Assembly: GCA_965645245.1 (NCBI GenBank)
Contig: OZ287080.1
Span: forward strand, 1,736,001 to 1,800,000
Reading direction: 5' to 3'
DNA: 64,000 nucleotides
DNA from: Massalongia carnosa
Lineage: Eukaryota
The notes under the pieces are model-generated. The model was not told the DNA's origin. It did not search any database and was given only the letters and a program-made list of their open reading frames with translations. Numbering within the stretch: the first letter of the stretch is position 1; the number at the start of each line of letters is the position of its first letter. Below are positions 2,692-56,490 of this stretch, one piece after another. Position numbers and translations under genes: made by a program.

Positions 2692-2719
2692 TCTCTGCAA
2701 ATCGTCGCGTGCAGGGACT
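2679..2719 (+). promoter_or_regulatory. -1 ribosomal frameshift signal (slippery G GGA AAA plus stem-loop)
   Basis: Heptamer GGGAAAA at 2679-2685 in the gag frame. Stem AGTCTCTGCA/TGCAGGGACT at 2690-2719. pol is in the -1 frame and is open across this site. Confidence 0.8.
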
Positions 2720-7666: not shown

Positions 7667-7958
7667 ATAACAATATTTAAAGGGTACGGATAGAAGCACA
7701 CCCCTTTGGTTACCCACACACCCCCCTCGGTTACCCACACACCCCCCTCGGTTACCCACACACCCCCGGTGGTTACCCACACACCCCCGGTGGTTACCCA
7801 CACACCCAACCCTAAAGTAGCTTAAGTTTGAAAAGTTTCTTCGGCCACTTTCCCTTATCGGGTGACCATCTTTCCTAACTAGGGAATTTTGATCCTGCAT
7901 CTTCATTCTGCGTTTTCCCTGCATTGATACCCCGCATTACTGACGCCATGTCGTCATC

Positions 7959-23970: not shown

Positions 23971-24044
23971 TTTCGTTTCAGTGTCACCGTTCCCATTAAC
24001 AACCTCCTTGTTTGTAAGCCCTTGATCGCGATTTCGATCAAGGA

Positions 24045-29930: not shown

Positions 29931-30069
29931 TACGGCCTGGCTCATGCTAGTTAATCCCGCAACCGCCGTAGGCGATCACGTATCCTTCTAGCGCCATCCG
30001 TATTTACAGGAAGGACAGGTGGCGCTATGGTAGAAATCTATTCTATTCACTATCTCGCTTCGTCACAGA

Positions 30070-30183: not shown

Positions 30184-32789
30184 GGGAACGGATAACAGGA
30201 CACCACTTTGGTTAGATAAACACCACCTCCGGTTAGGTAAACACCGCTAGCCCAGGTAGGGTAGATTCCTCGGCCCCGCCCGCCTCTTTCCCTTTTAGGT
30301 CTAGCGGTTGAAACTCCCACATTCTACCTGCACCTCATCCTTGCACTCATATTTCACATTTGATCTGCAGGCACCCTGCCGCCGCCACGTCGTCATGCCG
30401 CTTCGACCTCCCGAAGACACTAGAAGACCTGTTGCTTAGAGTCAATGAGCATGCCGCCCCCGAAGGCTACGCCGTGGTGCTTCTTCGAACCAAGAAAACC
30501 AAGCAGGGAGTGAGAAATAAAGCTTGGTTAAAATGCGACCGAGGTGGAAAAGTCAGAGAACCGCAGGGTCAGGATCGTCGGCACACCAGCAGTCGACTAA
30601 TTGCTTGTCCATTTGCCCTGACAGCCAAAATGGACGACGATGTGTGGTTTTTGGAGGTGGTAAATGGGACACACAATCCTCCGTCCAGTCTTGCTGGCTC
30701 TCATCCTGCCTAGAGAAAAATCGCTCTGACCGGTGTAAAGGATGACGTTACCAGACAGTTAACAGTACAAACGTCGGCGTCAAAGGTTTTGTCTAGTCTG
30801 CGTGTTCCCGATGTGGATGCAGATCTCAGTCCTCATGATCCCAATGCCGAGATCATTGTGAATCCGATGTTTAAATCTCGGGACATCTACAACTTAAAGG
30901 CGCAGATGAGACGTGATGTCTTGGGACCATTGACTCCTATTCAGGCATTGATTCGTGAGTTTGACGAAAAGGATTGGGTGTACAACTTTCAACAAGACAT
31001 TCATCAGCAGATTACGCATCTCTTCTTCATCAAGGGCAGTTCCCAAACTCTTCTGATAGATAATCATGAAGTTCTCATTATGGATTGCACGTACAAGACC
31101 AATCGATACAAAATGCTTCTTCTCGTCATCAGCGGACAAACCGCGCTACATACTACCTTTTATGTCGCCTTTTGCTTTCTGATCACGGAGACAGCAGAGG
31201 ACTACATCTGGGCTTCACAGCAATTGAAGGAGGTGTATTCTCGATTGGAACTTCCTGATTCAATTATTCTCGTGTCCGACATGGAGAAAGGATTAATGTT
31301 GGCATCTTCCATAGTCTTTCCAAATAGCAATCATTTGCTATGCATCTGGCACATCAATCAGAATGTGTTGAAAAAGTGCAAAAAATCTTTCGACAATGAG
31401 GAATGGAAGATCTTTTTGTCAGATTGGAAATCAGTGATCTATGCAGCAACCGAGCCTCAATTTTGGAAGCTATGGGAGCAGTTTTCTGCTACCTATATGA
31501 CTTCTCATGAAGATTGTATTCGATATTTGAAGTCCACATACATTGATAATCATCGCGATCGCTTCGTGGCATGCTACACCAACAAGGTGCTGCATTTTGA
31601 GACAACGGTAACGTCGCGAGGGGAAGGCGCACATGCAGTATTAAAACGTCAATTAGGATCATCGACCGGAGATTTGAAGCTGGTAGTTGACGGCATTAAT
31701 CTGCTACTAACAAATCAGTATCATGATCATCTGATTGCTTTTGAAGAAGCCAGAACACGTTTTCCACTTCATCTTCGCAAAGTTATCTTTCAGCAACTGA
31801 GAGCATTTATCAGTCCCTATGCCCTGAAAAAGATTCTACACCAATACGAGTTATTAACAGGAAGACCGACTGTTATTCCAGCTTGTACCAACGTCTTCAC
31901 TACCATCACCGGCTTGCCTTGTAGTCATCTGATTCAGCAACGATTATTCGAGAATGAAGGAAGTCTGAAATTGGAAGATGTGCACCCGCATTGGAAGTAG
32001 GTTATTGTCATCTGATCGATGGTCAGCGATCAGTTACTAACAACAGTTCAAGGTTGGAAAAGCGCGCCCCTCCGATTGCTTTGATTAATCCTCTTCTTCA
32101 AGTGAGGGAACCGGAGATAGTCCGACCTCGTGGTCGCCCTCAGGGAGCGGAAAACAGACGAGCGGAGGCATTTGACAATTCCACTCATCGATTACCATCT
32201 CAATTCGAACGGGTTGAAATGGAAACAGCTGATGCAATAGCTCCGGAGGTGGAACGAGCTATTCATCGAGCCAATACTACACCAGGCAGGGTAGGACGTC
32301 GGGGGCTAGGGCGAGGGCGAGGACGAGGGGGAGGGAGAGGAGGGGGAGGGGGATTGGTGAAAGAGCTGAGACAAACACAAGGACTGGCCGAGCTAGGGCT
32401 AGGGCTAGTCGAGGCAGAGCTGGTCGAGGAAGGGGAGACGGGATTGGCGGGGATGCAGCAGATGAAATAGGCAGGGATGCAGCGAATGCGGCTCCAATCA
32501 ACTGATTTGCATTACTAAGCTTCAAATAAAGGGTGCGATTCATGAAGACAGTGCCAATCGACAAATCCAATGTCTAGTAATCGATGGTTGACAGCTTTAC
32601 AAAGCAAGAAGTGAAATATTAGTGAATTGAATTTTTTCTTAAGGTGTCAATGTTGGGATGTGGACTGCTAGACCTAAAATAGGAAGAAGGCGGGCGGGGC
32701 CGAGGAATCTACCCTACCTGGGCTAGCGGTGTTTAGCTAACCGGAGGTGGTGTTTATCTAACCAAAGTGGTGTCCTGTTATCCGTTCCC
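30184..32789 (+). mobile_element. Mutator-like (MULE) DNA transposon 2
   Basis: TIRs GGGAACGGATAACAGGACACCACTTTGGTTAG... at both ends. 8-bp TSD AAAATTTA at 30176-30183 and 32790-32797. Confidence 0.93.
30395..32470 (+). pseudogene. MULE transposase (paralog of 7959-10022) with a frameshift and a stop at 30711-30713
   Basis: Same motifs (MDCTYKTNRY, LCIWH, TGLPCSH, EDVHPHW), same intron position, RG-rich tail. Confidence 0.88.
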
Positions 32790-33320: not shown

Positions 33321-34752
33321 ATGTCATTGCATGCTCAAATGGCCCCCTCATACAGCGCGGAGATTGCAGCTATTGTTGATAAAACAAGGCATGCCATCCT
33401 CTCTAAAATCAACACTACGACGGTTTCTGAACGTCAAGGCAAATCCCTCAAGGATCCTGGTGTCCAAGCTCGAATGTGGGTGAGCCGGGTGGTACTGGCA
33501 GCGCCGCAACCTGAAAACGGTGATGCCTGTCAAAGGATTTGCGATGCCATCTCGTATCTTGGAAAGGGAAACGAAGAGTACAAGGTACCGGCAATGCTAG
33601 ACGTGGCGGCGGAGTGGACGGGATATCGACCTAGAGTTGATGACAATGCTCCCGAACCATCGATTTCGGAAGTGGAGAAATTTAATGGTCTAATGAGAGA
33701 TGTGGAAAACCAAATTACAATCCTTTACCTCCACGGAGGAGCGTTCTTGTGAGACCTTGTTTCAGTGCTCGCTGCCCACTGACCACTGACCGTTCGCTTG
33801 TCACAGCCTTAACAGCCCTGCGTCTTACCGCAATATTACTGTCAAGTTGGCAGAACTTACCAAAAGCCGCTGTTTCGCTGTTCGCTATAGACTTGCACCA
33901 CAAAATGCCTTTCCAGCGGCCTTGCTAGATACCTTTGTTGCCTATCTATCCCTTCTCTACCCTCCTCCGGATTCGATTCATTCATCCGTCGCTGCTTCTT
34001 CGATCATTCTTGCAGGTGATAGTTCAGGTGCGACCCTCGCTCTTGGTCTTGTCCAAGTTATACTTGCGTTGCAGCGCATTCAATGTATCCCAACTCCAAT
34101 GGTATGCTTTCATGGACAGAACGTTGCTATTCCTATGCCAGCTGGTGCTACACTGCAATCCCTTTGTGCAGATCAAACCTTCTCATCACTCCCTTCCTGG
34201 TCTCGCAATGCATGTTTCGATATATTGCAGAACGATAATCCCGTCCTACGCCCAGACTATCCTAGTTGTCCCATCTGGCCCTCTATTCCTCCGCGCGGCG
34301 ATCTATATTGCGAGACGAGCATGATTTGCCATCCACTGGTTTCGCCTGCCACGGCCCTGGATTGGGCTGGCGCGCCGCCTGTGTGGTTTGCTATCGGGGA
34401 GGAGCGCATGAGTGACGGTGCGAAAGCGGTCGCACAGGCCATGGCCAATCAAGGTGTAACAGTGCAATGGGAAGAATACAAACATATGCCCCATAATTGG
34501 CCCGTGTTATTCTCGAGATTATGGCAAGCAACGCGATGTATGGGACATTGGGGAGAGGCGTGTAAGCTTTTTGCAGGAGACCGAACATCTCGCAGCAAGG
34601 GCGAGATAGTTGAATTGGATGGAAGCACAAGATCTCTCGAAGTGACACACTTGATTGAATTAAATACGGAAGCTGTCCTGGAGATAATGAAAATGAAACA
34701 GGCAAAGATGAGGACGTGGACAGGTAGACAACGAGAAAGGTCACTCATCTGA
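33321..34752 (+). CDS. Alpha/beta hydrolase (HSL/esterase family); one intron
   Basis: HGGAF oxyanion motif, YRLAPQ..FPAALLD, nucleophile GDSSG, and C-terminal 'MPHNW'. Confidence 0.88.
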
Positions 34753-35459: not shown

Positions 35460-37987
35460 TTAGCTTACGCTTGCTGTTTTGAGCGCCGCTGTCACAATCT
35501 TAGCGATTGCCCATACTTTCTCTTCTTCGTGTTTTCTTGCCACAATCTGCACGCCGATGGGGGCTCCGTCGTAGACAGTTGGATCATCTATGTTTTCAGG
35601 AAAAATACGTTAGAAACTGCAATTTCAGATGCCCGTTCTCGTCAGATCTCGACTTACAAGCTTCCCAGTTCTTGCGATCAGTCTCATTGAGAGGCTTGTA
35701 GTCTTGATCGAAAACATCAATTTCCTTGTTCGCCGTAGAGACAGGAATAACGCAAGCATTATAGTTCAGGAGATTAATGCATTCTGTGTACCCTAACAAT
35801 TCCTGGAGTTAGACTCAAACGACTTGCAACATAAAACTTGAAAGAGAAGATCGAGCTTTACCGATGTGATAATACTTTCCAGGGATGACCGCAGCATGGG
35901 GAGCAACCGGCATGATCACCGCATCTACTATTTGTCCTTCAATGATGCCTTGAATTAGTAGCAACCCTGGCACCTAATAGCAGTGCACATAACTTACCAT
36001 CTTGATTTACGGTAGAGTTCCAGTAGTCCGAATAAGCGGCCTCATAATCTCTGCCTTGGATGGTGAGGTCCTGATATATTAACAAAGGGATCGGGTCTCG
36101 AAGCTGAAGCTTTTCTCGAAGTTGAGGGATCAGGGGTTCTCCGGAGAGGTCAAGCTGCTTATGGATGCCGTGCGCACCGTCCGCATTGAGAAATTTAAGC
36201 TGAATGGTTCGCTTGAATAAGCATAAGCTCTTCAGAATACAATGGAATCTTGCCTTACGTGGATTCTCTTCGCAGTGTCCTGCGGTGGCGGGTTCCATTC
36301 AACAATCTACCAAAACCTGTGTCAACGTGAGCCACACCAGACTCTTTTCACAAGTTAACGCACCTTGTGGCCAGCATTCCCTAAGATTTCGGACACAGTA
36401 CGTAGGCCTCTGCTAATCGGGGGATGCGGGCCTACAAAATTATCTGTCCAGAACACACCAAGTTTTAATGGGATCTGCTTATTGGCTGGACCATCTGCTG
36501 ATGCCCTCGCCAGCGTCGAGTCTACTATGTCTTGGCGCCATGGAATATTCGTGACCCACGGGTCGCGGAGCCACGGTTTGGTTAAGAGTACAGAGGTTAT
36601 AACGAGCTTCAAGGCATCAAGGGATGTACCTAGAACTCCAACCGCCGAAGGATACGCGTTTTGACCTGGATTCTGGAGTTGCGTAGAGGTTAAGCTAACA
36701 GCCTCGTTCAGGACGGAGAGAAAGAAGATGGTTGTTCTTACAGTATTCGCCACGTCCCTGTAAGAGAGCCTGTCAGGAGTTGGTTTCAAGGAATATATGC
36801 CGCAAAACGCAGCAGGTATCCGTACCGAACCACCTGAGCGCCGTTGTTAATCCTTACTAATTTGTTCGAAATCTTCCAATAGCACTCACCGATGTCCGTA
36901 CCCAGGCCTACGGTGCTTCCTCTTAGTGCTTGTAATGCCGCTTCGCCTATCCACAAACTCACATTTAGCAGTAAGTGACCCCTGTCACTATATTCAGCTT
37001 CGTACCTCCTGATGATCCGCCACAAGAGAGCAGCTGATTGACAGGATTCATAGTACACCCGATAAGGTTGTTGACTGTTTCACCAATCTATGGATGGGCA
37101 ACATACTCGACAATTAGTGCTGGTCAGGTCAATTGCACAGAGTCGTTCGTTACATACCAAGAGTGTTTGAGGCAGACTAGTCTTTTTGCAGATCAGTAAG
37201 CTTACGATACAGAACGGCTGGTGGGGATCACTTTGCAATACAAAATAGCCCCTAATGAAAGTAGCTCCTCGACTATCTGGCTTTCAACCCTTTTTACCTT
37301 ATCTGGACTCCTGTCGCCTTCGTAGCTTCCTATCCAGCCCACGTATCCCATTGTAGTATCGGTGTCTTTAACATGAAATTGGTCCTTGAGGCTAATCGGC
37401 AACCCATGGAGTGGACCCATGATCGAGCCATGTGATTTATAGTATTCGTCTAACTTCTTTGCTCGCTGAAACGCCTGCTCGAAAAAGATCTCGTGGAGGC
37501 AGTTGTTCTACATGAGGAACGATTAGCGATGGCAGGCAAGTGAACGCTGGAAAAGGAATAGGAGCCCAGGAGACAGACAACGGATGTCAGAACAACATAG
37601 TACGATATTATACTCACAATCTGATGCGCAATCGCCGCCGTCTTACAGAATGCTTGAGCCACCCGCAAAGCCGTATACTCACCGGTTTTGAGTTTTTCTA
37701 TAAGCAATGTGCTATCATTCCGTATAATACTTATATGTTCGTTGTTAAGAAAAGACTCTATAAAAGGACCGCTGATTTTTTTCATATGCTTGGCCTCATC
37801 AGGGCTGGATTGATCGAGCCTCCATTCGCTAGGTATTTTTGACTAGGTCTCCGCAACTTTTGCTTTTGCCTTGGCTTCCCAAGATTCTTCGTGAATGTGC
37901 AACGTAGTGTTCCTAGCGACGAAAAAGAGCCAATCAATTCGGGGGCTAATAGTCAGGCTTAGGAACTATCTTCGTCGGTGGATCCAT
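35460..37987 (-). pseudogene. Amidase-signature (acetamidase-like) gene with an apparent premature TAG; multi-exon, start uncertain
   Basis: GPLHGLPISLKDQF, GGSSGG/EAAL and GTDIG/GSVRIPAAF motifs. The N-terminus reads 'WEAKAKAKVAET*SKIPSEWRL' with TAG at 37843-37845. Confidence 0.78.
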
Positions 37988-39779: not shown

Positions 39780-40760
39780 TCAAAAGGAAACCAGACTTTT
39801 ATCAAACCAGTCTCTAAATACCGTATTCGCCCAATGTCGAAGTATCTTTAGTGCGGCAAGAACTTTGTAGATGCCGAGGATCGTGTCCGTAGCTCCAATG
39901 TGAACTCTACCATATAGAATCTTAATAGTCAGCCAATGGTGAGAAGCAAAGAAGTGAGAAACGTATACCGTCTTGCTGTCTCGTTGCACTGCCAGAATTG
40001 CGAATCAATCGTGTTCTTTGATATATATTAACGGTAGCACCATCATTTCACAAGTCACGCCGGATCGCAGAATGATTAATTGCAGTCGCTTAAAATGCGC
40101 CACAACCCATACTGATAACTGAGTTGCAGCCTCGGATTCGCTCCCTCCTATCTTCGTCTCAATGCTGATAGCAATTGGTCGGAATCGAACTGGTTCGAAC
40201 GAGGTATGATTGATGTAATGAGAATTGACCAGTTCCAGTCGCAAAGTTTCACGCATTCGCTTGAACATAGGCTCGGCTGAGTCAGGTTCGAGGCATATGT
40301 CATAGTCCACCATCTTCCCCTGCAACGAAGCCCCACTTAAACTCGATGGATTGAAGGCTCGAGGATGGATCCTTGCCGTAGTACTATTTATTGGTTAGAT
40401 GCGCTATCTCAAATCTCGGAACACAAGAGGTATGTGATGTAAGGAGGGCAAGCGCATGATATGAGGAAGCATACATGTTCTGGAAAGCGACTGCCGTCTG
40501 ACCTTCCAGAGCCAACTCAATGACGCGAGAATAAACCTGTTCGTTCCACCCCGGCTCGGCATCTTGTAGGTCTCTGCACATCTGCGCCTTCCTCAAAATC
40601 CGTTTCACTTGTATCAGTTCAGCATGGCGATCTAGGGTGAAGGTGAGAGCTCCATACGAGGTGTACCTTGTCACAGCTCGTATGGAGGTAGCTAAGCGAG
40701 GCCGACGATTACGTCATGCTTTGGGGAGCTCACGAAGACTTTCTGGGAAGAAAACTTCAT
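39780..40760 (-). pseudogene. Fungal PD-(D/E)XK nuclease-like gene remnant
   Basis: 'KMVDY...INHTSF.P....PIAISIETK...QLSVW..AH...LPLI....HD*' matches the fungal PD-(D/E)XK nuclease-like family. TGA at 40005-40007 where Trp is expected. 5' part missing. Confidence 0.65.
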
Positions 40761-40883
40761 TATGTACAAATTTGGCCCAAGGTAGTCGGCAGTTATTTAT
40801 TCTCTGATAAAAGGAGTTGCAATGTTTTATACGGATATTTTCTTGGCTTGAAATGTGCAATGTCGTAATTTCTGAACAATATC

Positions 40884-43800
40884 TCAAATGCCCGCCGTCT
40901 CCCAGTTCGAGTTGATACGACTTTCGTCAATGGTCTTCATGTTCGTCCAGTCATCCGCCAGCTTTCTAGTTCCCTTACTTTCGTCATCCCAACTTTCGAT
41001 GATAAACGCACAGCGCTCGAGGTTTTTCCTTTGCATAAAATCAGTTGTTTGAGATAGCTTAGCCCACACCGTTTTTACAGCGGAATCTCGACTCCCTTCA
41101 GTTAGATGTGCTCCCTTCTTGACTAGATTTTTAACAGCGTGGACGTTACCTGTCGAAGCTGCTATATCTAATGCGTTCGCGTTAGGAAGAATCCCATTAG
41201 AGCGAAAATTGAGCTGGGAGGGCTCTTGACCCAAATAACGAAGGATAGTCAAGAAAATGCCCATGACTTCGATTTTCATGGCATGGGCGCGTGGAAGAGG
41301 TAGAGCGGCTGTAAGCTGTAGTGCGCTGATCTGCTTTTTCTTGTTAACGAAGAAAGATTCTTGATAAAATTTGTCGCGCTTTGTGCAGTATTTAAATAAG
41401 AATTTGATGGCGCCTAGATTGATAGCGTTGATACAGAGGCCGAGGATATTGAAACCTTCTTTGTTGACGGCAAGAGGATAGGCGCCCTTCTCAATAAGGA
41501 GACCTGTTAGATCCCATTTCCGATTCAGCACGGCGTCCATCCATGGAGTGATTCCGTCTTCATCGGGCGGGTCAAGTAGGGCACCTAGGTTAAGGAGGCG
41601 CGGTGCAAATTCCTGCGATGCAAGGCTATGATCCGGTATCTTAGCGCAGAGGTGAAGAAGAGTTTTCTGTCGATCATACAAACTGATGACTGGAACGCCG
41701 TAGTCGAGAAGAGTGTTATACAAGGGGGTGTTAAAGCTTGTTACGCTGTCCCGAAGTAAATCTGTCAAATAAAATGGTTTGACAGCATTAATTTTGATAA
41801 AATCAATCTGTACGTCAGTATTCATTCGCCCTATGGTGAGTATTATAGTCAGTCTTGCCCTGTACATGACATAAGCCGAGTCCCAAAGCATGCATAGAGT
41901 AACTAAGAAAATGTAAACGAGCCCTCTGTCGTAGACCAATTTGGTCTCCCAAGTCGCGGGGTCAATGAGAAAATAGATCCAAAGCTGCAGACATACCATA
42001 AGGAGATCTGATGCTAGATCTTAATGCTGGAAGCAAAAGACTCGTGAAATCCTCGGCCTCAGGAAATAGTGTATTCCAGTCCTTTAAAAACTGCAACGTC
42101 TCTCCGGCTGCCATCGTCCAGCGCTCTCCGTGTCTAGTCATTCGCTTGAATCGGCTCTCTCCACCTGCCGCCGCTTCGATGAGCCGGCCAATGTGGCCAC
42201 GAATCTGAGCTGGACGAGTGTTCTCCATTAGGTACCGTAGGTGAGTAAGTAGATGTAGTCTCGCAGCGATGGACAGTGCATCATCACCATTATCTGTAGA
42301 CACCAGAGATTCAGCTCCGAGTTGGATTAAAATCTTACAATGTTCTAAATGACCCCCGTACACAGCCCACATCAACGGGGTACCCCCAATGGTAGTTCCG
42401 GGTTTGGCTACAGCGTTCACATTTGCCCCAGCCTTGATCAATCGGAGACCTAGATCGTAGGCTTTCGCGATGTCCCAAGAGGACAAAAAATGCAGAGGAG
42501 AGACACCATCCTCGGATGTCATAAGTTTCGCAGAATCTGACAACTTATGGAGAACGTCATAGTTACAATTTTCTGCTGCGGCTAGAGGACTCCACATTGC
42601 TTGAGCGTTTGCTGCGCTAGGGGTCGATTTTTTCGTGTCTAGGTCCTGTTGAGCAGTAACATGCGCCAAGACGTCGTCCTCATCAAATTCAGAGGCCCAT
42701 GACGAACTGAGTATTGCGCTAGATTCATCGGCTCTTAACTCAGATTCCCGGGAAGTCAGTGGATCTGCATTGGATGCTAGGAAAATCTTTGGAAGCGCTT
42801 CATGTGCATTCTGGGATCCTCCTTCAGCGGCGAAAGAAAGCCATTTTAGGCACTCATCAGGTAAAAAAGGGACGCCGAATGAATTGGCATAGCATAATGC
42901 TAGTTGATAAGCAGCAGCGATTTCTTTTCCTTCCTTTTTATCCCCGGATTGATCAATCAGACCTTCTGCATAATCTTTGAAGCCGGATGCTATCAGTTTT
43001 TTGATTAGAGGACTACAATTTGCGAATTCAGAATTCCATTTCTCTAGATCGAGGAGCTGAGCATCTATATCTGCTGGTATGCGTGACGGTGCCACGGCAT
43101 GCCGTGGTTGAAACCAGTTATTTGGTGTCAGCAATCTGATTATCCGGGTCATATCAAGCTCTCTTTTGGCAGGGTCGTTAACCAGGGTAATGCTCACAAT
43201 CTCACAGAGCATCTCTAGCTGGGGCCGAGTAAATTTTGCAGATAAAGCTAGAGATATACAAACGTGCTGGACCAGTTGATCCTGGCATTTTAGCGCAGCA
43301 ATTGCGTCGTTCCGCTTTTGTCGTTGCTCCTTGCTACTACCTACAAATCCTCCCAGCGAGTCGAATGGATTACCATCGAGAAAGACTCTCCAGATCAACA
43401 TCCCAAAACTATACACATCGGTTCGTTTTGCCTCTTCGAGCTTGAAGAACACTCCACGGGAGCACTCAGGTGCCTGCCATGGTCGGCTACCACCAAGTAA
43501 GATTTCTCCATCAGGGAGTCGGATAGCGCCAAAGTCTGTTAATTTGCAACAAAGGTTGAACCCTAGGGCCTTGGCGTAAGTATGAAGTTACAACAAGTCG
43601 CTGGAAGGCCCACCTTTGTCCTGACTTGTATTGGAGCGCCCTTCAGCTTCGAATACCAAAACATTCTCACCCTTGACATCTCCATGCACAATATCTAAAG
43701 GTATTGACGATCAGCAGCAGTCTTAATGAGTGCTATTGGTATGCGAAAGCCTTCAAATCATAGACGATGGACGGAGATTGAGGGGGGAGATAAAGCAACG

Positions 43801-44540
43801 ACCTAAAGAGAAGCACATTTATCGGCGGAAAATATTAAATAAATATTCAGAGACTACAGAAAAGACCGGAGCTGCAGAGAAGATTAGAGAAAGAACCGCT
43901 AACCGCAAGCATGGAGTATTTCAAGGCCATGGGCAACGTCAAGGCACATTGACATCTTGTCCTCAAACTTTAGCGGACGGTCCTCTTTCCTTGCTATCTC
44001 TAGCACCTCTGCCAAGTTTCCGAGCTCAGCCACCTCGAGTACCAGGACAGGTATTGCATTTTGTGGAGTCCCTAATCCTGTATTTTCTGTCTCGAAGGCC
44101 AATCCAAGGAGTTTGACAATATTTGGGTGAGCTAATAGCGGTGCATGTTGCATCGTGACCAGTTCGTTGAAAAGAGCACGGATGCGGTCTTGGATGGGAT
44201 GCATATCCCCACCAAGCACTGCTCGCTTGAACGCTACTATCATGCCTTGAGGAAACACCGTTCCAGCCACAGGATCAACATAGGTCTCCGGTAGTTCCGC
44301 GCCATTGACGAGGAACGAAGCACCCTGGCCAAGGACGGAGCGTATGTCGGGCTTGGTGACAGGAAGGATGGGTATATTACGGGTTTTGACATAGGAGAGA
44401 AAGCATAGCAAATTGTCATGCAACGTTGTAGCCAATGTCGAGTAGATGGCCGGGTGAAGGGTAGCGCCGGGAACGCTGGAGCTTTTGATCCGACGGGAAC
44501 GGAGTGGAAATGTTGTCGTGTATGTTTCGAAATGATCCAT
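40884..44540 (-). CDS. Ser/Thr protein kinase-SEL1-ankyrin repeat protein (~1076 aa; exons 44540-43904, 43694-43614, 43562-41997, 41830-40884)
   Basis: The spliced frame is open. It has GQGASF, VAFK, HGDVKGENVL, DFG, PWQAPE and DVYSFG, a SEL1-like segment 'AYQLALCYANSFGV', and ankyrin repeats (SPLHF, TPLMWAV, TLLHLCA, TPWMDAV, NALDIAA). Confidence 0.87.
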
Positions 44541-45103
44541 ATCGGTGGTAGAATAAAGCCTTCGCAAGACGGTTGGAGTTGGAGTAAAACAACAAAATTC
44601 GAGGGGGTCCACCCCGCCACACAAGATAAAGTCGCTTCCATTTCTCTCCAATCGCACTAATGGGGGTATAGAACCTGTACTGAACGAAAATGGCAAGGAT
44701 TATCGCTAGACTGGACATTTTCAGACCTTGGGCACTCTTACTGACTGGCGGCGACTCGGCAACAGCGTCTCGGATGTAGATCATAGCCAAAATGAGCGTC
44801 TGAGCCTTATGGATTCCAACATGAACGTGTTGAGAGGTTTTGGCCGAGGCCACAACGCCAAGACGATCTTTCCCCTTTCGTCCTAGAGTATAATGCTCCT
44901 GAGTGGGATGCTGCGATGCACCCCATTTGCCGTTCACAGCAGTAAGACTTTCGTAGCTAAGGTATATTTCTAATTGGATTACCATATGAGTGGGATGGTC
45001 ATAACGGACTTCATCTACTTTCCATCGCGCTACTCCAGAGTACTCGAATTTATCTTCTTCTAACCTCACTCTCAAAGTGTGACTTTGTAGAATCATTATA
45101 AAT

Positions 45104-46856
45104 ATGGATCCGACAGGACTGAGCCTCGGTGTTATATCAGCCGTGATCCAAACGTATACAGCTGTGACGGCGGCATACGATTTATACCTTGAAGTCAAAG
45201 ACTTTCCTTCAACATTCCAAGAGCTGCGCATGGGCTTGCTGATTGAACGCTATAAATTGGAATTGTGGGCAAATCACGTCCTATCCGACGCTGAGCAAGA
45301 CCGGGTAAAAAGGTCTTCGCAGGACTGGGGCCTTTGGAAGCTCTTTGAGTCGATTTTTAACAAGATCCTAGAAGCCTTTCAAGAACACAACGAGATAATG
45401 GAGAATTACGGGCAACATACCGGGTTGCCTAAGAAAGATGGACTTTCAGGTAATGCGTCAGATTTGACTTTTTGATGCCAGACATCACTCTAAAATCTGT
45501 GAAGATTGGGAGTTTCTTGAAAACCTGTCCCTTTCCGTCAAATCTCCACCGAAGAATAAAATCACCCGCATTTCGCGAACCATCAAGTTCGTCCTCCGAG
45601 ATAAACGAAAGATGGAGCAGCTCATCAAACAGCTAAATTATTGGAATGACAGTCTGGACAAAATGACTTCGAAACTGGACCAAGAGTCATCGCGTCGGAA
45701 ACTCAGGACGTACTTCTCGACTGATGACGCCACGCAGCTCCAATACCTGGAAGCTGCTGCAGCGCTATTCAATCATCAAGATCTAGGACGGATGGCTAGC
45801 GTACGAACTTTAATCGACCAAGGATATCGCGGCGAGAAGTCGCAAGACCTAGAAGCAAGTCTGAATCCAGCCCCGGAATATCGTCTCATGATGGAGCACT
45901 TGCAATGGCAATGCATACCTTACCAGACGGATCAGGTTCGTGCTATGGCAAAGCTTGGAGACGAAAACATTATCGTTGACTGGCGAGGCTGCCAAGATAA
46001 TACCTGGCGGCGGGAGAACCCTTCTGCATTCCGGCGCCGGACCGAGAACCTGACAAAGATCCTGAATTCCGACCTTAGGCCCCTGGGCATTTCCGTTCTC
46101 CACTGCGTAGGCTATCTTGACCAAAACATAAATATTACCGGCTACGCTTTCCGTTTACCGCCAGATGTTCCACCCGGCCAGAATCCCATGACTCTCCATC
46201 AACTTCTGATGCGCGCCAAGTCAGCCAACGATATTCCAGATCTAGGCGAGCGTTTTGACTTGGCCAAAGCTCTGACCTCGACCGTTTTTGAAATCCATAA
46301 CCTTGGCTGGGTGCATAAGAACATACAACCCAAAAACATCCTGTTCTGGCCGAAACCCAACACCACAGATGAACCCGATTTGCGGAAACCGTATTTAATG
46401 GGTTTTGACATCTCTCGCCCCAGCCAGCCAGGCGAAGTGTCCGAGAAGCCTCCTTCTCGCCCGGAGGACGATTTATACCGACATCCTGAATACATAGGCT
46501 TAAATCCTCAATCCTTCCAGCCGTCGTTCGATTTGTACAGCTTAGGTGTAATCCTGTACGAAATCGGCTTGTGGCGAAATGTTGCCCAGCAAAAGCACTC
46601 GAGCAGCTTACGGCCATCTCTTCACACACAGAAATCAGATCCACAATTCGTTGAGAAGATGGTCCAAAGTGGATCAATCCTGGAGTTGAAACGATACACC
46701 GGTTTACATTTTCAGAACGCTGTTGCGGCTTGCTTAAGCAAAGACTTTGATGCCTTTTGGGCGGAGCCACAGGGAAATCGCCAGCAGAAGTTGCAAGCGT
46801 ATTTGGGCCAGCTTCAAGCAGAGGTTGTTGATGCAGTTGCTGTTTGTAATGCATAA
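45104..46856 (+). CDS. HeLo (prion-inhibition and propagation) domain + pseudokinase protein (~565 aa; intron 45450-45504)
   Basis: HeLo-type N-terminus 'MDPTGLSLGVISAV...LLIERYKLELW' and 'IKFVLRDKRKMEQLIKQLNYWNDSL'. Kinase-like C-lobe 'HKNIQPKNILF', 'LMGFDISR', 'LYRHPEY' and 'DLYSLGVILYEIGLW'. Confidence 0.87.
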
Positions 46857-47459
46857 GTCGGAAACGGTACAAAATTTTCATGTATGCTTTATCATGAGAA
46901 TTAGCTGAGGAAGAGTTGATCGTTATTGGTCGCGGATTCTATACTCGTTAGCTCGTAGAAGCAACTAGATCCGTCCCTTGCCAACCGGATTCCAATGTCC
47001 ATCAACGTAGGGATCGAATACTCTTCACTTCATGGTTTAGTCGGCTTCTCTAAGCCACTCTAGGAGTATCAAGCACCTTACCCCAACGCTTCCGCGAAAC
47101 ACACCCTCACAAATCACGTATCCACCACCCAGCTCTACCTTGCGTGACTCCAATTATCATTATCGCAACCTATCCATTTAGTCATTCGTTATTCTCCGCA
47201 ATAGTGCCGTGCTAGTACGGGGTACAAAATATAGTACAAAGAAATACATAACGTAATTCACTAGTCAACGGGGACAAACCGCTCAACGGGACTAACAAAT
47301 TTCTCAACCTAGGTATTTGATCAAGTTTCAAAAAATTTTATTTTCACAACACAAGATTTTAACATGAAACAAATTTTAATATTTAATGGCGAAATTTTAT
47401 TCGTAACGAATTTTTTATGTGATAAAACATAACTTGTAACATATTATAGTATTTAAAAA

Positions 47460-47785
47460 TAAAACTTGGACGCCACCGAACCCAAAAAGATCACGAAAAT
47501 ACTGAAGCGACCAGAACAGGCCATTTCGACCAGGACGGTGTCAAACAAAGGACTCTAGAACCGAGGTTAAGCCGACTCCCGAAGAAAAGCCGATAGAGAT
47601 GGCGATGATAGAGGCGCTGCGTACCGACTGCTGTCCAAGCAAAAGAACGTTGAGCTATTCTCTATTTCTTTGAAAGACATCGAGTACCAGCTGAACAAGA
47701 AAAACCGCCCACCCACTGACCCGAAGACCATAGTCCCCCCGAAATACCATGAAGTTCTGAACGTCTTTTCAAAGGCTGCATCTAG
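47460..47785 (+). mobile_element. Degenerate Ty3/Gypsy pol fragment
   Basis: Translates as 'DPKTIVPPKYHEVLNVFSKAAS', homologous to the pre-RT region of elements A and B (PKQYHEFLDVFSK). Confidence 0.6.
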
Positions 47786-47935
47786 AAGCTTCTAAAAGGA
47801 TGTTAACACCCGAGCTGGGCGAAAGGTTCGACGAGCGTAATAAGTTATTTGCGCTTACGTCTCCTCATTGTTTGTAAGATACAAAGAGCGAATGCCCGAC
47901 CTATCCCAAACTCCCTTCTGCACTGGCTATCTTAG

Positions 47936-50540
47936 CTATAGCATCATCGAATGCCTCAAGGATAGGCCCATATAGCTTCTCCGGATCCGGTGGGGTTCCA
48001 GTAAACAACCCATCCTTATATGGGAAGAGGATACCCCGTATCTCTTGACATTAAGGCTTAAGGTGATCGAATATTGAAGCAAATTCCTCCAAAATGTCCT
48101 CAAACCCGTCAACACCCATATCGCCTCGTTTACTTCGAGCGATATCATCATAATCGCCCGTGTACCACTTCGTTAAAATGCTTTTCTTGGGTCTATCCAC
48201 CAACTTGCACCCAAATTCCCTTTCCCACGCACGACGAGCGCAGATCCATAGAAGCACATAAAAGAACGACTCGAGGTCATGCCGATAGGTATGAGCGACT
48301 TTGCGTAGCACTTCAATCGCCATAAACTCCAATTGTGCCTGTCTGATGCCGTGCGCCGGTTCGCCCGCCACCGACTATTTTCGCAAGATCTGCATCGATC
48401 AGCATCCCCGTGAAGCCATTAGCCTGCTTTGGATTTGTTATTATGATGTTGTTTTCCGAGATGTCTCTGTGCAGTATAGATCCTTCCAAGTACAAGGATC
48501 TATGCGCCTTGATCGCAACACGAAGTGTCATTAACAGCTCTAGGATCGAGTAAAAATCCTTGATTGCTCGTCCGGCCGGCGCGATAATTAAGCAGCCGAA
48601 TACGCGATTGTCGAATGATCTGTCGCTTGGGTCACAGAAACTCGAGGATTGTATATTTTCAAGGGCTTGTGACGATTCGTGTTCCTGAGATAGGTCTGAT
48701 CTTTGACTGTTGGATCTCGACCGCTTCGAAGACTTTTCTTCGCTTTCCTCACACTTTCGTTTCCTTGTACCGGCATTTCCCGGGGATTGCGACACTTCAT
48801 ACTCCTTGCGTGACGTCGACTTTTGACTGGTGGATGCGGGCTCCTTAAGCAACTTTCCTTCGTGGTCCACAGACTTTCGGCCCTTGTCTGTGTAATCTTC
48901 AGGGCCTCTGTAGCATTGTGTTCTTGATGTAGCCTTGACCTTTGAGTGTTGGATCTTGACCTTTTGGAAGGTTTTGCTTCGTTATCTGGAGATTTTCGTT
49001 TCTTCGAGCTCCTCGAAGAGATCTGCACGATGCTCAAACGTTGGAACGGCCCAGAAGACTGAGAAAGTGGCTGCTGTGATTGGGATTGCGAGAAAGATGC
49101 CGAGGTATTTGGCGAGGTATTTCGGAATCGGTGAGGAGCAGGAAAGGTTAATCCGCTACATATTTCCTCGATGCTAGTTATGTGTCGGTAGCCCAGCAAT
49201 CTTGCAACTCCTTTAACACCTTTCTGATGTGCCAACCTCAGGAGATCTGCCTCCGGTGGCCGCTTGGCGGATGTCCATGAGAACTTGGCTACATCTTCCA
49301 GATCCTTGGTGCGATGGCAGGTTGTTCCCCGACAGACAATGGCTCGTTGCACGACAAGCGGAGCACGCTCCAGCTGAAATCTCTTTTCCTTTCCAGTAGC
49401 ATCTTCGGTAATGGTTATAAATAGATCTCCACCATTCCGCTCAACGAATGTGTCCAAGCCCAGCTCTTCGTCGCTCATCATAGCGTACCCTGCAACGGCT
49501 CGGATAAATTGCTCGGGTTCCTCGTGAATATCGAATTCACCAGAGCTGTAAGGGTCAGATCGATCGAACACCCACAGCTCTATGGTGGTTCCGTGGAGGA
49601 AAAATCCATGGATGAAGCGGCGGGTAGGCTGGGCGGTAAACACATCACGCATGTACCTGCCGAGTTGGATGAGCAAAGTTTTAAAGTCGTCCTTTGATTG
49701 CTTGTGCTCAGCAATGACCCGGACGTCTTTCCACTTGTGTGTCGTTCCTACCTTGTCGCTCTTCCGTTTGATGAAGAGATCGAGCTGACGTCGTGCCTCA
49801 GCACCAGTAAGATCCTTGGTACTTCTGCTTGTGTAGTAGACACCTTGCGCGTCGGATAGAAACTCTTCCTGAAAATGAACTAACCATTCCCTACAGCATT
49901 CTGCACTGGCGGATCAGGGAAGTCAGTCCACCGGCCGTCGACATATCGGTCCTTCATGGCATTGTATATTTCTTTGCTCCGCTCAGTCCACTGCTTGCCC
50001 TCGAAATACTTTGAGAAGAATCCGCTAACATTCCTGTATGTACATCTCTTAATTTCGTGGAAAATCGGTCCATTCAACAACTCTTTGGTCTGCTCATCAC
50101 CTTGCTGCGGGCAGAGGAATGCGTGATGGGCGTGCCGTCGAACGAGACAGGAACGCTTGCAGGAGGGCTTATCCGAGAAAGAGTGATTACGAGATCGAAG
50201 ACAGCGTTCCAGATTTCGATGTCCGATGCCTTCTTAATAACTAGCCGTGATAGCGCACGGTAGTGTTCGTAATGGAAGTCACCCTTCTGGACGCGTTCGC
50301 GAACCCTTAGTAAGTCAGAAGTGACGTTTCAATTTCCAGTCTTCGAAGGGAGATAAAGAGTCACGTCTGGACCCATCAAAGCGCTCAGAAGCCTTGACGT
50401 TGCCTTTTGAAGTCCTTGGTCGGACCTGTCAACAGCTCCATCGTAAGAGATCACACCTGGCTTATAGACCGCTCCGCCTTCCGAAGCGCATCTTGTAGAT
50501 GATCTAGGGAGTCATCCAAAGGATGCTCCAGGATGATGGT
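47936..50540 (-). pseudogene. FunK1 / fungal-type protein kinase, multiply frameshifted
   Basis: 'QLGRYMRDVFTAQPTRRFIHGF...LWVFDRS', 'AIVCRGTTC', 'HRDISENNI', 'LIDADLA' and 'FMAIEVL...HTYRHDLESFFYV' spread over several frames. Confidence 0.85.
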
Positions 50541-53842: not shown

Positions 53843-56490
53843 ACGATGGACCCAGGCCCCTCCGCTGCAGGCCCGCTGTCGCAGATCCGGAGACGGCGGC
53901 GCCTCTTTCTTGGCCTCCTCCTGAGGCTTACGTTGATGTCGACGCCGTCAAGCGTGAGTCTCAGGCCTATGCCACCCACGGAAACAACGAGGCCGCCATG
54001 GCCGCCACCATGAGGCGCGTCCGCGGGGATGCGGGAGGAGGATCGGAGGGCCAACACCCTTAAGACGTACCGCAAGTGCTGGCATCTGTGGGAGGTGACT
54101 ACGATAGGTATGCACTGCAAATTTGGGCCTACGCTAACATCCTACAGAAGTGGTGCCGACGTCGCAATTTTCCTGACGGCGTCCTTGTGTGGGAGCGGAA
54201 GATGCTCTTCTTTCTCGAAGAGGTCCTCCTCCGCCTGCGCTTCGTCCTACGTCCCAAGCTCACAGGCGCAGCAGCGCAGGCCAGGCGGCGGGATCAGAAT
54301 CGCCAACGGCAGGCTTAGCGCCGCGCGTTGAAGAGGGGGAAGGGGAAGGCGATGGAGGCGGTGGAAGCCTCGCCAGCGGTAGAGGGAGAGGAGGTGGAGG
54401 AGGTGGAAAATTTCGAGGAAATCTCCGACGGCGAGGAGCTCGTTGAGACGGTGAGTCGCCCCCTGAACTCGAATTCAGGGATAGAATCATCTTTTTGTAG
54501 CTTACTGACTCGGCTTGCAGTAAGCCGACGACCCTTTATCCCGGCCCCTGGCGCCCGATAGCGTGGAATCGGGCTACGTCTCTGCCCTCCGCGCCCTCTT
54601 CGATGACCAGCATCTCGAAGAGAATTTGGTGGTGCCCCATCCCAAAGGGAAAGCCACCAAAGCCCTGATGACGCGCGCGCTTACGCATCGATTGGAGCGC
54701 TTTCAAGCGGGCCTCGTTCGAGGATCGCGCGATCCACGGCCTCACCGACGGCTACACGACTGAACAGGCCGCTCAATTGTCGGCAATGCTGCTCGCCGGG
54801 GCAAGGTTTGGGGGGAGGAGGGCGTGGCGGGCGGCGAGTGGCACCTCCTGCGAGACTCGCCTCGATTTCCTCCCAATGCATTCGATGATGCTGCGGGGGG
54901 AGTCAACGCGGAGGGCTGAGCTACCTGATCTCTGCGCCTACGACCTCCCTAACGAGGGGCCCGAATGCCTTGCGTTGATCCTTCGAATTGGCCAGGGCAA
55001 GAGCATTCCTCTGGCGGACGGGGGCAACTCGCGCCGCCAGCATTACCATGGTGCTTTGCGGAGCAGAGATGTCGTCCTCTGTCCTCTCGGCGCCCTCGCC
55101 CACTGGCTCGTCTTGCGCTGGGACCTCCTCCTGGAGAAGCGGCCGGACTTCCGGGATCGATCTTCGTGGTATTTCACGAAGGTCATCTCCGGGAGCCTGG
55201 CGCGATCTATGGAGGAGATCTCCGACAAAACACAGGCCCGATGGATTAAGCCGGCTTTGGATGCTGTCGGCGTCGACAGCTCCAAGACGGTCCACACCAT
55301 GCAGCAGTCCTCGTCACGGCTGGCCGACATGTTGGAGGTCCCCGCGGACCAAGTAAGTACTCTACGATTCATGGCCCCTTATACTTGCTAGCATTACCCT
55401 TATACCAACTACTACAGATCATGAGAGCAGGCGGATGGCCCTGCAGCGGCAGGTGTGGCCTTGGGTGGATGACGCTCTGGCAGCGTACAAAGGCGGTCTT
55501 TTCCTGATGTGGATAAGGCAGGGAAGAAGATTCTGCAGATGTTGCTGCGGCTGCGATGTCTTCCTGCAAGACGCGGCGCTTCTACAGTCTCAGTTTCCTG
55601 AGCTTTCGCTCTGGAGACAACAAGTCTTCAGAGATCCCCTTTGGCCTGCGTTCGTGGCGAAGATACGGGAGTTGGAGGCTGTAGAAAAGGAACCTTTGCA
55701 CGTGGCCATCCACGGCGTGCTGCCTCTTGTTGCTGACTCCGTTGATGGCGTCAGTAACAAGGTCAGCGGTGTTGCGATCAAGCAAGATCGCACGCTCAAC
55801 GCTGTGGAGAGGTTACTCTCCGGGCAGAGCCAGCTGACGACCACCTTGAGTGCGCTGTCGGTGGCAAATGCCCAGGAGATAGCTCGAATCCTGGGTCCGC
55901 AGCTCTCACAGTTGCAGGCTACGGTCTCGACGCTACCTCGATCCTTTCTGACGGTTCCTGTGGAGGCTGTTCGGAGGGACTGGCTGCTGGACGAGGCTTC
56001 TTGGCGAGGGTAGGCGACTGCTCTTGCGACGGCGGTGCATTCCGTTGGTGAAGAGCCTGCTGCGTCGGCGTCCTCGTACGTCGACGCAGTCGCTTCTCTC
56101 CTTCCTGCACCTTCTGTCGTCCTCACTTCCGTCCCCGGAGAGGCGTCTACGGTCTCTGCGCCCTGTGGCTCCCTCCCCCAAGAGGGGCCGCCTCAACATC
56201 CTCCTGGCTGCCCGGCGGAGCCTATTCTCGGCGGCGTGACCTCGGCGGAGGCGGTGTTGGAGGAATTCGCGGGGGGGACGTTGGTGGAGAGGGTCCGGCG
56301 TACGTCTCTCGACGAGTTGGACCGCCTCTTCGGGGCTAAGTGGAGGTGCACTCCTGCCCTGAGGCAGCGGTTCTACGTCAAGAGACGGATCCGTCGGTAC
56401 CTTCAGGGAAATGCGAATGAGCAGAGGAGGGATCCGTGGGATATTGCGCGGGAAGTTGACAGTTTGGGGCTCTCTGAACATCAGATCTAA
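53843..56490 (+). pseudogene. Crypton-type tyrosine recombinase (Ndc10-II-like + GCR1_C) relic
   Basis: 'NTLKTY...KWCRRRNFPDG..V.ERKMLFFL', 'LRGESTRRAELPDL', 'GALRSRDVVLCPLGALA.W...RW', 'PDF..RSSWY', 'KTVHT', 'VWPWVD', 'FLQDAA', and a GCR1_C-like end 'LDELDRLFGAKWR...RFYVKRR'. Introns, stops and frameshifts present; visibly GC-rich. Confidence 0.75.

Follow-up and report, generated by a model that had tools for sequence, protein, structure and literature searches.

In the present study, we analyzed a 64,000-nt stretch of Massalongia carnosa DNA (contig OZ287080.1, positions 1,736,001 to 1,800,000; hereafter the window) and found that two divergent genes filling positions 40884-46856, termed Gene A and Gene B, form an ancient, co-inherited, head-to-head module, which is the strongest claim that the data allow. 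Gene A encodes a kinase domain that retained its catalytic motifs and is followed by a helical and ankyrin-repeat tail. Gene B encodes a HeLo domain followed by a kinase fold that has lost its catalytic residues, and the protein resembles both HET-S and MLKL. We consider the chances evenly balanced that A and B act as one functional unit, a kinase-controlled HeLo executioner.

Structure of the two genes

The window was fungal DNA with short spliceosomal introns. The exons of both genes were modelled from the sequence by eye, and the introns rest on homology. Gene A lies on the minus strand and comprises four exons coding for 1076 amino acids (aa), with its ATG at 44540 and its stop codon at 40884-40886. 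Gene B lies on the plus strand and comprises two exons coding for 565 aa, with its ATG at 45104 and its stop codon at 46854-46856. After splicing, both genes contained zero internal stops, and every exon junction was collinear with the homologous proteins P0125, P0010 and P0007. The two genes stand head-to-head across a shared intergenic region of 563 bp (44541..45103) between both start codons, which is presumed to be a bidirectional promoter. A first-pass annotation of this DNA had already placed two divergent ATGs at 44540 and 45104, about 560 bp apart, and our gene models agreed with it; we added to that picture the three introns of Gene A and the location of its HGD motif on an 81-nt micro-exon. 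Among the matches listed, the proteins closest to A and B came from lichen-forming Lecanoromycetes such as Usnea, Lecanora, Stereocaulon, Letharia and Alectoria.

All four exons of Gene A are read on the minus strand. The coding sequence of exon 1 (43904..44540) covers the N-terminal region together with the N-lobe of the kinase and ends where the catalytic loop begins; the exon was defined by its open reading frame (ORF), a splice donor (g/gttagc), a Pfam match to PK_Tyr_Ser-Thr (1e-7) and collinearity with P0125. Exon 2 (43614..43694) is the micro-exon and carries the catalytic loop (D)IVHGDVKGENVLVFEAEGRSNTSQDK. Exon 3 (41997..43562) contributes the kinase C-lobe as well as the DFG and APE motifs, and further encodes Sel1/TPR-like helical hairpins, a linker of low complexity and a first ankyrin block. 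After an intron of the form gtatgt...ctgac...catag, exon 4 (40884..41830) encodes a second ankyrin block, a conserved C-terminal helical region and the stop, and is collinear with P0125 across the junction. In Gene B, exon 1 (45104..45449, plus strand) encodes the N-terminal half of the HeLo domain, including an N-terminal hydrophobic helix, and matched positions 1-102 of the Pfam HeLo profile. A 55-nt intron (gtaatg...gtgaag), supported by P0007 and P0010, separates it from exon 2 (45505..46856, plus strand), which encodes the C-terminal part of the HeLo domain, connecting helices and the predicted pseudokinase domain.

Kinase and repeat tail of Gene A

The catalytic motifs were all present in A, namely the Gly-loop GQGASF (aa 71), VAFK with the beta-3 Lys (aa 102), HGDVKGEN (aa 216), DFG (aa 249) and APE (aa 270). 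In an alignment of 36 A sequences, K110 was invariant and E132 was nearly so (at least 90%). Beyond the match in exon 1, Pfam detected the kinase C-lobe and Ank_2 (4.6e-10) in exon 3, and Ank (2.9e-7) and Ank_2 (8.9e-7) in exon 4. The ankyrin matches exceeded their cut-offs, with Ank_2 at 40.4 bits in exon 3 and 29.8 bits in exon 4 (cut-off 27.3) and Ank at 30.5 and 30.9 bits (cut-off 21.1), and the structures of ankyrin-1/2 matched the A family profile at 6.5e-41. The first-pass annotation had described A as a kinase with all motifs followed by SEL1 and ankyrin repeats; the motifs and the ankyrin repeats were borne out and SEL1 was not. In exon 3, Sel1 (PF08238) stayed below its curated cut-off (E 0.0037; 18.2 bits vs 30.7), P0125 gave no Sel1 match at E <= 0.001, and the domain was annotated in 3 of 36 homologues. 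The region after the kinase domain is better called Sel1/TPR-like helical hairpins than Sel1 repeats. The AlphaFold2 (AF2) model of P0125 had a predicted local distance difference test score (pLDDT) of 74.5 and placed the kinase at residues 60-400, the helical hairpins at 419-509, a disordered stretch at 515-569 and a confident alpha-solenoid at 574-1067.

When the A family profile was compared with solved structures, the best kinases were MLK1 (4e-16) and MLK4 (3.9e-13). A search with the window A sequence by itself reached RIPK1 at 3e-9, behind MLKs, FGFRs, DLK, ZAK, Roco4 and ITK. The RHIM core [IV]Q[IVLC]G was sought in both window proteins: A contained a single match, IQLG at aa 652, which lies within an ankyrin repeat, and B contained none. 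Because the best matches were MLK1 and MLK4 and no RHIM was found, Gene A is predicted to encode a catalytically complete TKL/MLK-type kinase with an ankyrin tail, outside the RIPK family. A VQ[IVL]G word was seen within GRINSDVQIGFIK of P0130, P0131, P0134, P0136, P0137, P0139, P0143 and P0147 (at about aa 741-791); this site is shared by these 8 of the 36 A homologues, and one further homologue has the word elsewhere. We rejected the reading of VQIG as a RHIM in these eight Teloschistales-type proteins and took it as chance, given that the window has VQID and that the segment is confidently helical in the AF2 model. An identity of A with the fungus-specific TK-like kinases (FslK) was likewise dropped, since these kinases are absent from Ascomycota according to the available excerpts of PMC3937382.

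The micro-exon stretch was present in 28 of the 36 homologue models. It was skipped in five (P0134, P0135, P0139, P0140 and P0147), and three models were cut around the exon (P0143, P0145 and P0146). HGD and DFG were found in every A homologue model that includes the micro-exon. These results indicated that automated gene models skip or truncate the HGD micro-exon, so that 8 of 36 A-like proteins look catalytically dead.

The mean column identity in A was 0.74-0.75 in the ankyrin blocks and 0.78 in the kinase, and a search for near-identical tandem repeats in A found none. The conservation of the blocks, together with the absence of such repeats, suggested a conserved binding partner for the tail, possibly B itself, instead of a ligand that diversifies.

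HeLo domain and predicted pseudokinase of Gene B

Pfam HeLo (PF14479) was detected in both exons of Gene B, at 2.3e-10 (41.1 bits) in exon 1 and 2.9e-7 (30.9 bits) in exon 2, above the cut-off of 23.2 bits. The homologue P0322 covered profile positions 1-205 of 205 at 4.5e-22. The B family profile matched the HET-s/HET-S HeLo structures 2WVN, 2WVO and 2WVQ with an E value of 8e-18 over positions 3-205. Because the match to the HET-s/HET-S crystal structures spans the whole domain, the N-terminus of B is, as judged from its sequence, a bona fide HET-S-type HeLo domain. The AF2 model of the B homologue P0010, built with a 64-sequence alignment, had a pLDDT of 81.6 and a predicted template modelling score of 0.84. 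It was helical over residues 3-230 with a disordered insert at 102-146, and contained a kinase fold at 245-567. The N-terminal helices were placed at 3-30, 37-60, 63-71 and 73-106, with pLDDT values of 86-94 in most blocks. The predicted N-terminal hydrophobic helix corresponds in the window to GLSLGVISAVIQTYTAVTAAY, which is hydrophobic.

In the C-terminal part of B, Pfam detected DUF7580 (1.9e-7) and Pkinase (5.4e-7; 29.7 bits, under the curated cut-off of 31.7) in exon 2. VDWR (aa 273) replaces VAIK, so that the catalytic Lys is absent; HKNIQPKN (aa 386, 46314-46337, plus strand) replaces the HRD loop and lacks the catalytic Asp; and GFD (aa 415, 46401-46409, plus strand) replaces DFG and lacks its Asp. 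These substitutions were kept in all close homologues (41 rows of a 64-row alignment, one of which is without part of the catalytic-loop stretch). Since the VAIK Lys, the HRD Asp and the DFG Asp are replaced in all of them, the kinase-fold domain of B is classed as a pseudokinase on its predicted motifs. The first-pass annotation had likewise read B as a HeLo domain with a kinase fold devoid of catalytic residues, and the HeLo match above cut-off and the VDWR, HKN and GFD motifs upheld that reading.

The conserved activation-loop motifs of B are SEKP (aa 428) and YRHPEY (aa 440). The activation loop after GFD (...SRP...E-x-SEKP...DDLYRHPEY) was the most conserved segment of the protein, with a mean column identity of 0.80 vs 0.64 in the HeLo helices. 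In a catalytically dead protein, such conservation would be unexpected if the loop did not serve for regulation or docking. The protein ends in an invariant A-x-C-x-A-COOH (AVCNA in the window, 46842-46853), and the C-terminal Cys was near-invariant even in the distant members of the 64-sequence alignment. This Cys could be a lipidation or structural site; the ending does not conform to a classical CaaX box.

A profile of the pseudokinase alone (23 rows, wider family) was compared with solved structures. Mouse MLKL (7.6e-9) and rat MLKL (8.4e-9) came first, followed by LIMK1 (1.4e-8, level with MLKL), full-length mouse MLKL 4BTF (1.5e-8) and IRAK4 (1.3e-7). In this search, the family consensus '...lHknirsknvlf...YlvGFeysrp' aligned with MLKL '...LHRNISSSSFLV...KLAGFELSKT', which pairs H-k-N...GF[e/d] of the family with HRN...GFE of MLKL. 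The motifs H-K-G/N-I-R-S-x-N, H-x-N/G and GF[D/E] recurred across the wider B family. By architecture, B is an MLKL-like protein, and these alignments suggest that its pseudokinase is probably, though perhaps not exclusively, related to that of MLKL. A profile-profile comparison of the A and B families revealed generic kinase C-lobe homology alone (95.5% probability, 117 columns), and it showed no sign that the B pseudokinase was derived from A. The B family comprised 4102 cluster representatives at E <= 1e-3, and the close subfamily comprised 86 representatives at E <= 1e-30.

Co-inheritance of the two genes

The lists of A-like and B-like proteins consisted of 90% cluster representatives, taken from the best 120 rows. 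At least 16 A/B pairs with consecutive NCBI locus tags and equal-length contigs were found in 15 named assemblies, and these pairs cover three classes, Lecanoromycetes, Geoglossomycetes and Eurotiomycetes. Trichoglossum hirsutum (Geoglossomycetes) has a consecutively tagged pair (GP486_002268/002269), and the pair of Elaphomyces granulatus (Eurotiomycetes; V8E54_010190/010191) was found by cluster look-up. Among the matches listed, 15 of the 24 locus-tagged A-like proteins have a consecutively tagged B-like neighbour; for the remaining nine, a neighbouring B was not among these matches, which is uninformative on its absence. Lecanora helva carries two A/B pairs, and Physcia stellaris carries a third, divergent pair type.

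A metagenome scan with the B alignment yielded 36 loci, which were sorted by tblastn with both spliced proteins. Wherever a full-length B (at least 50% identity) was accompanied by upstream flank, A lay directly upstream of B on the opposite strand (22 of 22 loci), and these loci fell into about six lineages by identity. The others were two 2-kb contigs without flank, six loci with a B fragment alone, one paralogue at 32% identity without A, and five short soil contigs with distant or partial matches. The first-pass annotation had suggested asking whether orthologues stay adjacent head-to-head and whether their trees are congruent. The first question was answered by these 22 assessable loci and the at least 16 tagged pairs, which far exceeded chance pairing.

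The second question was addressed with quick maximum-likelihood trees of 19 paired A and B proteins, which gave the same clades, with nine proteins in a Teloschistales group and six in a Lecanorales-type group. Trichoglossum and the Physcia type fell outside both groups in both trees. The long branches also matched, at 1.25 in A and 1.6 in B for the Physcia type and 0.96 in A and 1.04 in B for the second L. helva pair, and the pairwise identities of A and B were correlated (Pearson 0.95 over 14 taxa). Shared species history accounts for much of this agreement between A and B. The paralogous pairs and the matched rate shifts indicated co-evolution beyond species history alone.

The ATG-to-ATG gap was 635-1059 bp in six other lineages (L016, L002, L009, L012, L017 and L018). 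A search for flanking ORFs (5 kb on the left and up to 10 kb on the right) common to the window and these six lineages found none at a tblastn threshold of 1e-8; shared flanks occurred solely in L012 and L028, which are near-identical copies of one locus. The 7-mer ACCCCGC/GCGGGGT was present in 6 of the 7 A-B intergenic regions (the window and the six lineages) vs a shuffle mean of 0.04, and we take it to resemble a CreA/Mig1-type SYGGRG site.

The six loci with a B fragment (L021-L025 and L027; e.g. L023:10001-10981) held B residues 243-565 alone, in three frames. Neither a HeLo part nor an A relic was found in them, with A sought to E 1e-2. These orphan B copies are frameshifted relics. The paralogue at L031:6419-8293 (plus strand) is a distant B-like protein with 32% identity and a DUF7580 match only at 1.4e-5. 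Within 8 kb downstream of it, L031:10919-16863 holds ankyrin-repeat ORFs and an NLR-like gene (NACHT_N, NPHP3_N, ankyrin).

Allelic variation

Natural variation was assessed in contigs from three public runs (X1, X3 and X4); the samples are few, and the independence of the runs is unproven. Divergence between these contigs and the window amounted to about 0.3-0.4% (some 20-25 substitutions in every 6 kb), and no deeply divergent haplotypes were seen among them. In Gene A, a change of W389 to a stop (43114 C>T, at an invariant Trp) and an extra base after 41732, which leads to a stop at codon 795, were both present in all three runs. X1 alone carried a further extra base after 44252 (codon 97). 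Gene B was intact in X1 and X3, with S214R and three synonymous changes. In X4 only, B carried a 1-base deletion at codon 465 (46551), which matches the odd C-terminus of the database ORF P0005. The window copy was intact at all of the disabling sites and had the homologue-conserved residue at each, so the window most simply represents a functional allele. The occurrence of an intact B beside a broken A in X1 and X3 suggested that B is tolerated without full-length A, which favours A as an activator over A as a restrainer.

Genomic context of the pair

Contig depth at 40601-40867 and 47009-47800 was 4-60 times that over the A/B pair. The raised depth of the flanks indicated that the pair occupies a single-copy island (40712-47218, about 6.5 kb) with high-copy repeats on either side. 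Direct or inverted repeats bracketing the pair were sought, and none were found. An X1 contig joining 40711 to 47219 was taken as repeat-mediated, because just 21 nt support it on one side and both sides carry high-copy repeats.

Pfam searches of the ORFs revealed that the window is rich in transposons, including two Ty3/gypsy polyproteins and MULE, DDE_1 and DDE_3 transposase ORFs. The transposon-type ORFs and a PDDEXK_12 gene lie at 2676-7133 (plus), 20200-25730 (minus), 7944-9572 (plus), 30714-31997 (plus), 18275-19366 (minus), 28434-29946 (minus) and 40008-40713 (minus). This set consists of two long Ty3/gypsy open frames, two MULE, a DDE_3, a DDE_1/Tc5 and a PDDEXK_12 nuclease gene that is split and lies immediately downstream of A. 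Two FunK1-type kinase genes (PF17667) at 48054-49913 (minus; 5e-70) and 57556-59847 (plus; 4e-74) lie within 13 kb of the A/B pair and are split over several frames by introns or frameshifts. NDC10_II ORFs (54672-56010, plus; 1.4e-13) fall within the sole GC-rich stretch (GC 0.60, 54001-56000) and presumably may be a tyrosine-recombinase-type mobile element. Pieces of metabolic genes were found by Pfam at 10571-12001 (minus), 13858-14283 (plus), 15589-16293 (minus), 33790-34749 (plus) and 36358-36846 (minus). They comprise an acetoacetate decarboxylase-like gene, a fungal rhodopsin domain, the C-terminal part of a cytochrome P450, an alpha/beta hydrolase and an amidase fragment, and some of them may be relics.

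Discussion

In the reading that we propose, A would be an active Ser/Thr kinase that is regulated by its helical and ankyrin solenoid tail, or that uses this tail to dock a conserved partner, and the HeLo domain of B, of the membrane-inserting kind, would be held by the non-catalytic pseudokinase. A would bind this pseudokinase and phosphorylate its conserved activation loop, with the near-invariant Ser of the SEKP motif as the candidate acceptor. Phosphorylation would switch the pseudokinase and free the HeLo domain to oligomerise and permeabilise membranes, and the cell would respond with regulated death or a related reaction at its membranes. Co-expression of A and B would be ensured by the short promoter that they share. 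A complex prediction with residues 55-410 of P0125 and 236-567 of P0010, in which the alignments were unused and no controls were included, gave a score of 0.00, which speaks neither for nor against binding.

Several points weigh against a kinase-gated executioner. The contact between A and B, the phosphorylation, its activating direction and the death outcome are steps that we infer, and the shared intergenic region is our ground for assuming co-expression. Conservation is strong in both proteins, at about 50-65% identity across orders, and the ankyrin blocks are nearly as conserved as the kinase; in this, A and B look less like a fast-evolving immune sensor and more like conserved signalling partners. 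The disabled A alleles in all three of the other runs suggest that the module is dispensable in this species, which is reminiscent of animals, where necroptosis genes are frequently lost from lineages. For the L031 paralogue, no A-type kinase was found over 6.4 kb of upstream and 10 kb of downstream sequence, which suggests that pairing with a kinase belongs to this B subfamily and does not extend to all HeLo-pseudokinases. The likeness of the B pseudokinase to MLKL is also not exclusive, as LIMK1 ties with MLKL in the profile search. Window B alone matched the C-terminal kinase of MSK1 best (3.9e-7), as well as HRI and GCN2, and Foldseek with the full P0010 model (567 residues) returned the generic kinases CK1, TTBK1, CSK and Hck, with the list taken up by the kinase domain and MLKL outside the matches listed. 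A wide structure search with the B kinase fold returned TKL/TK kinases at Z 16-19, in which MLKL (Z 16.5) ranked below CRAF, BRAF, TAK1 and IRAK1 (Z 19.3-18.6, with CRAF at 19.3) and RIP3 reached 17.2; because all of these kinases lie within about 3 Z units, this search has no discriminating power.

There are four rival explanations. The B pseudokinase could be an allosteric partner or scaffold of A in a non-lethal signalling pair, with the HeLo domain merely a membrane tether. STRAD-LKB1 and KSR-RAF are examples of pseudokinase partner or scaffold pairs. The strong purifying selection on A, B and the ankyrin blocks, the occurrence of mostly one A/B pair per genome lineage, the invariant C-terminal Cys of B, which could be a lipid anchor, and the conserved adjacency, which suits any obligate partnership, all fit such a role. 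However, the N-terminus of B is a full-length HET-S-type HeLo domain (E 8e-18), a known membrane-disrupting executioner in the available text of PMC12881547, and dispensability in nature would be unusual for core signalling; we regard this explanation as unlikely. Under co-regulation, A and B would be stress or defence genes that act independently, lack any direct biochemical connection and are held together by a bidirectional promoter. The short intergenic region shared in every lineage and the 7-mer common to six of the seven regions agree with this. Yet adjacency has outlasted all changes of the flanks across three fungal classes, the pairs were duplicated together, both partners show the same lineage-specific rate shifts, and a kinase beside a pseudokinase with an ultra-conserved activation loop is an unlikely coincidence, so that we give mere co-regulation little credence.

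The direction of control could also be reversed, so that A keeps B silent by constitutive phosphorylation or binding and the HeLo domain is set free once A is lost or inhibited, for instance by the effector of an antagonist. This guard or antidote role, which we find improbable, draws on the tight co-inheritance of A and B and on the orphan B copies without A, which are all frameshifted relics, as expected if B alone is harmful. Against it stand X1 and X3, in which A carries the stop at codon 389 and the frameshift at codon 795 (X1 also that at codon 97), while the B frame is open with one conservative-looking change; this counter-evidence is indecisive, as the 388-aa A product in X3 would still hold the kinase domain. 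The first-pass annotation had raised allorecognition, and a het-type system or a rapidly diversifying non-self sensor found its support in the transposon-rich region, in the segregating loss-of-function alleles and in the part that HeLo domains take in heterokaryon incompatibility (available text of PMC12881547). The evidence on repeats and polymorphism went the other way: the ankyrin blocks are nearly level with the kinase in conservation (0.74-0.75 vs 0.78) and lack near-identical tandem repeats, the three runs diverge by about 0.3-0.4% (some 20-25 substitutions in every 6 kb) and show no deeply divergent haplotype, and orthology is clear across orders. Given the conserved ankyrin repeats and the low polymorphism, we abandoned that part of the first-pass proposal and consider allorecognition highly improbable.

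The proposed kinase-controlled executioner can be compared with RIPK3->MLKL. In both systems, an active TKL-group kinase is paired with a protein that has an N-terminal helical executioner and a C-terminal pseudokinase, and the B pseudokinase shares the degenerate motifs H-x-N and GF[E/D] with MLKL. The conserved Ser/Tyr-bearing activation loop of B lies, we presume, where MLKL is phosphorylated. The executioner of B differs in being a HET-S-type HeLo domain, which is roughly double the MLKL four-helix bundle in size. The closest solved kinases to A are MLK1/MLK4, and A has no RHIM and carries helical and ankyrin repeats. Head-to-head encoding sets A/B apart from RIPK3/MLKL, and A/B is known here from genes. 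Of the RIPK-MLKL-like module put forward in the first-pass annotation, the MLKL-like build of B stood (HeLo at 8e-18 and MLKL as the top profile match, level with LIMK1), and the assignment of A as a RIPK did not. The stronger proposal, that A and B are an ancient fungal counterpart of RIPK3->MLKL, a hard-wired, kinase-gated HeLo/four-helix-bundle (4HB)-pseudokinase death switch with a pseudokinase truly homologous to that of MLKL, is tentative, and we lean against it.

Fungal HeLo/HELL executioners are switched on by NLRs via amyloid templating, or are fused directly to NLRs. B shares with the HET-S/NWD2, HELLP/PNT1 and HELLF/FNT1 systems a HeLo domain homologous to HET-S over its whole length. 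As with het-S/nwd2 in the available text of PMC12881547, the executioner and its presumed controller are encoded by adjacent genes. In contrast to these amyloid-templated systems, B has a pseudokinase instead of a C-terminal prion-forming or amyloid motif, its neighbour is a kinase with ankyrin repeats rather than an NLR, and control would be by phosphorylation or binding. The fungal and plant MLKL-like proteins (HeLo/HELL with a kinase or pseudokinase; HeLo with DUF7580) have the same architecture as B, but in the B subfamily (86 representatives at E <= 1e-30) a kinase is a fixed and conserved neighbour, whereas the L031 paralogue lacks one and sits near an NLR. RIPK4 consists of a kinase domain and ankyrin repeats. 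A resembles RIPK4/ANKK1-type kinases and MLKs in having an N-terminal TKL kinase followed by ankyrin repeats, with MLK1/MLK4 as its best solved matches, and differs from the RIPK4/ANKK1 type by a Sel1/TPR-like segment and a solenoid of about 500 residues with two ankyrin blocks and a C-terminal helical part.

The HeLo-pseudokinase architecture itself is already published. MLKL homologues exist in fungi and plants according to the available excerpts of PMC11476962, and a 2025 review, in its accessible part, asks how far necroptosis is conserved in fungi and urges wider study of fungal HeLo/4HB proteins. A kinase neighbour is not mentioned in the accessible portions of PMC9815663, PMC10197012, PMC4986451 and a Xanthoria preprint, and the reviews, in their accessible portions, name no upstream kinase for the fungal and plant MLKL-like HeLo-(pseudo)kinase proteins. 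The conserved kinase pairing was undescribed in the open full-text literature searched, with subscription-only papers and supplements outside this scope. In the same literature, 'DUF7580' was without mention, and 'HeLo-kinase' and 'HeLo-pseudokinase' were not found among the matches listed. The new element here is the conserved kinase/HeLo-pseudokinase unit.

A kinase fixed beside one HeLo-pseudokinase subfamily in three classes is a testable candidate for the missing HeLo activator. If the stronger proposal of a RIPK3->MLKL counterpart is true, fungi would own a second route to HeLo-mediated cell death that is independent of amyloids and NLRs, and the kinase-controlled release of a helical pore domain would either predate the animal/fungal split or have arisen twice from the same parts. 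Through the shared H-x-N and GF[E/D] motifs, the A/B pair also bears on the origin of the MLKL pseudokinase. Finally, the pair is relevant to the control of cell death or symbiosis in lichen-forming fungi, where experimental handles are rare.

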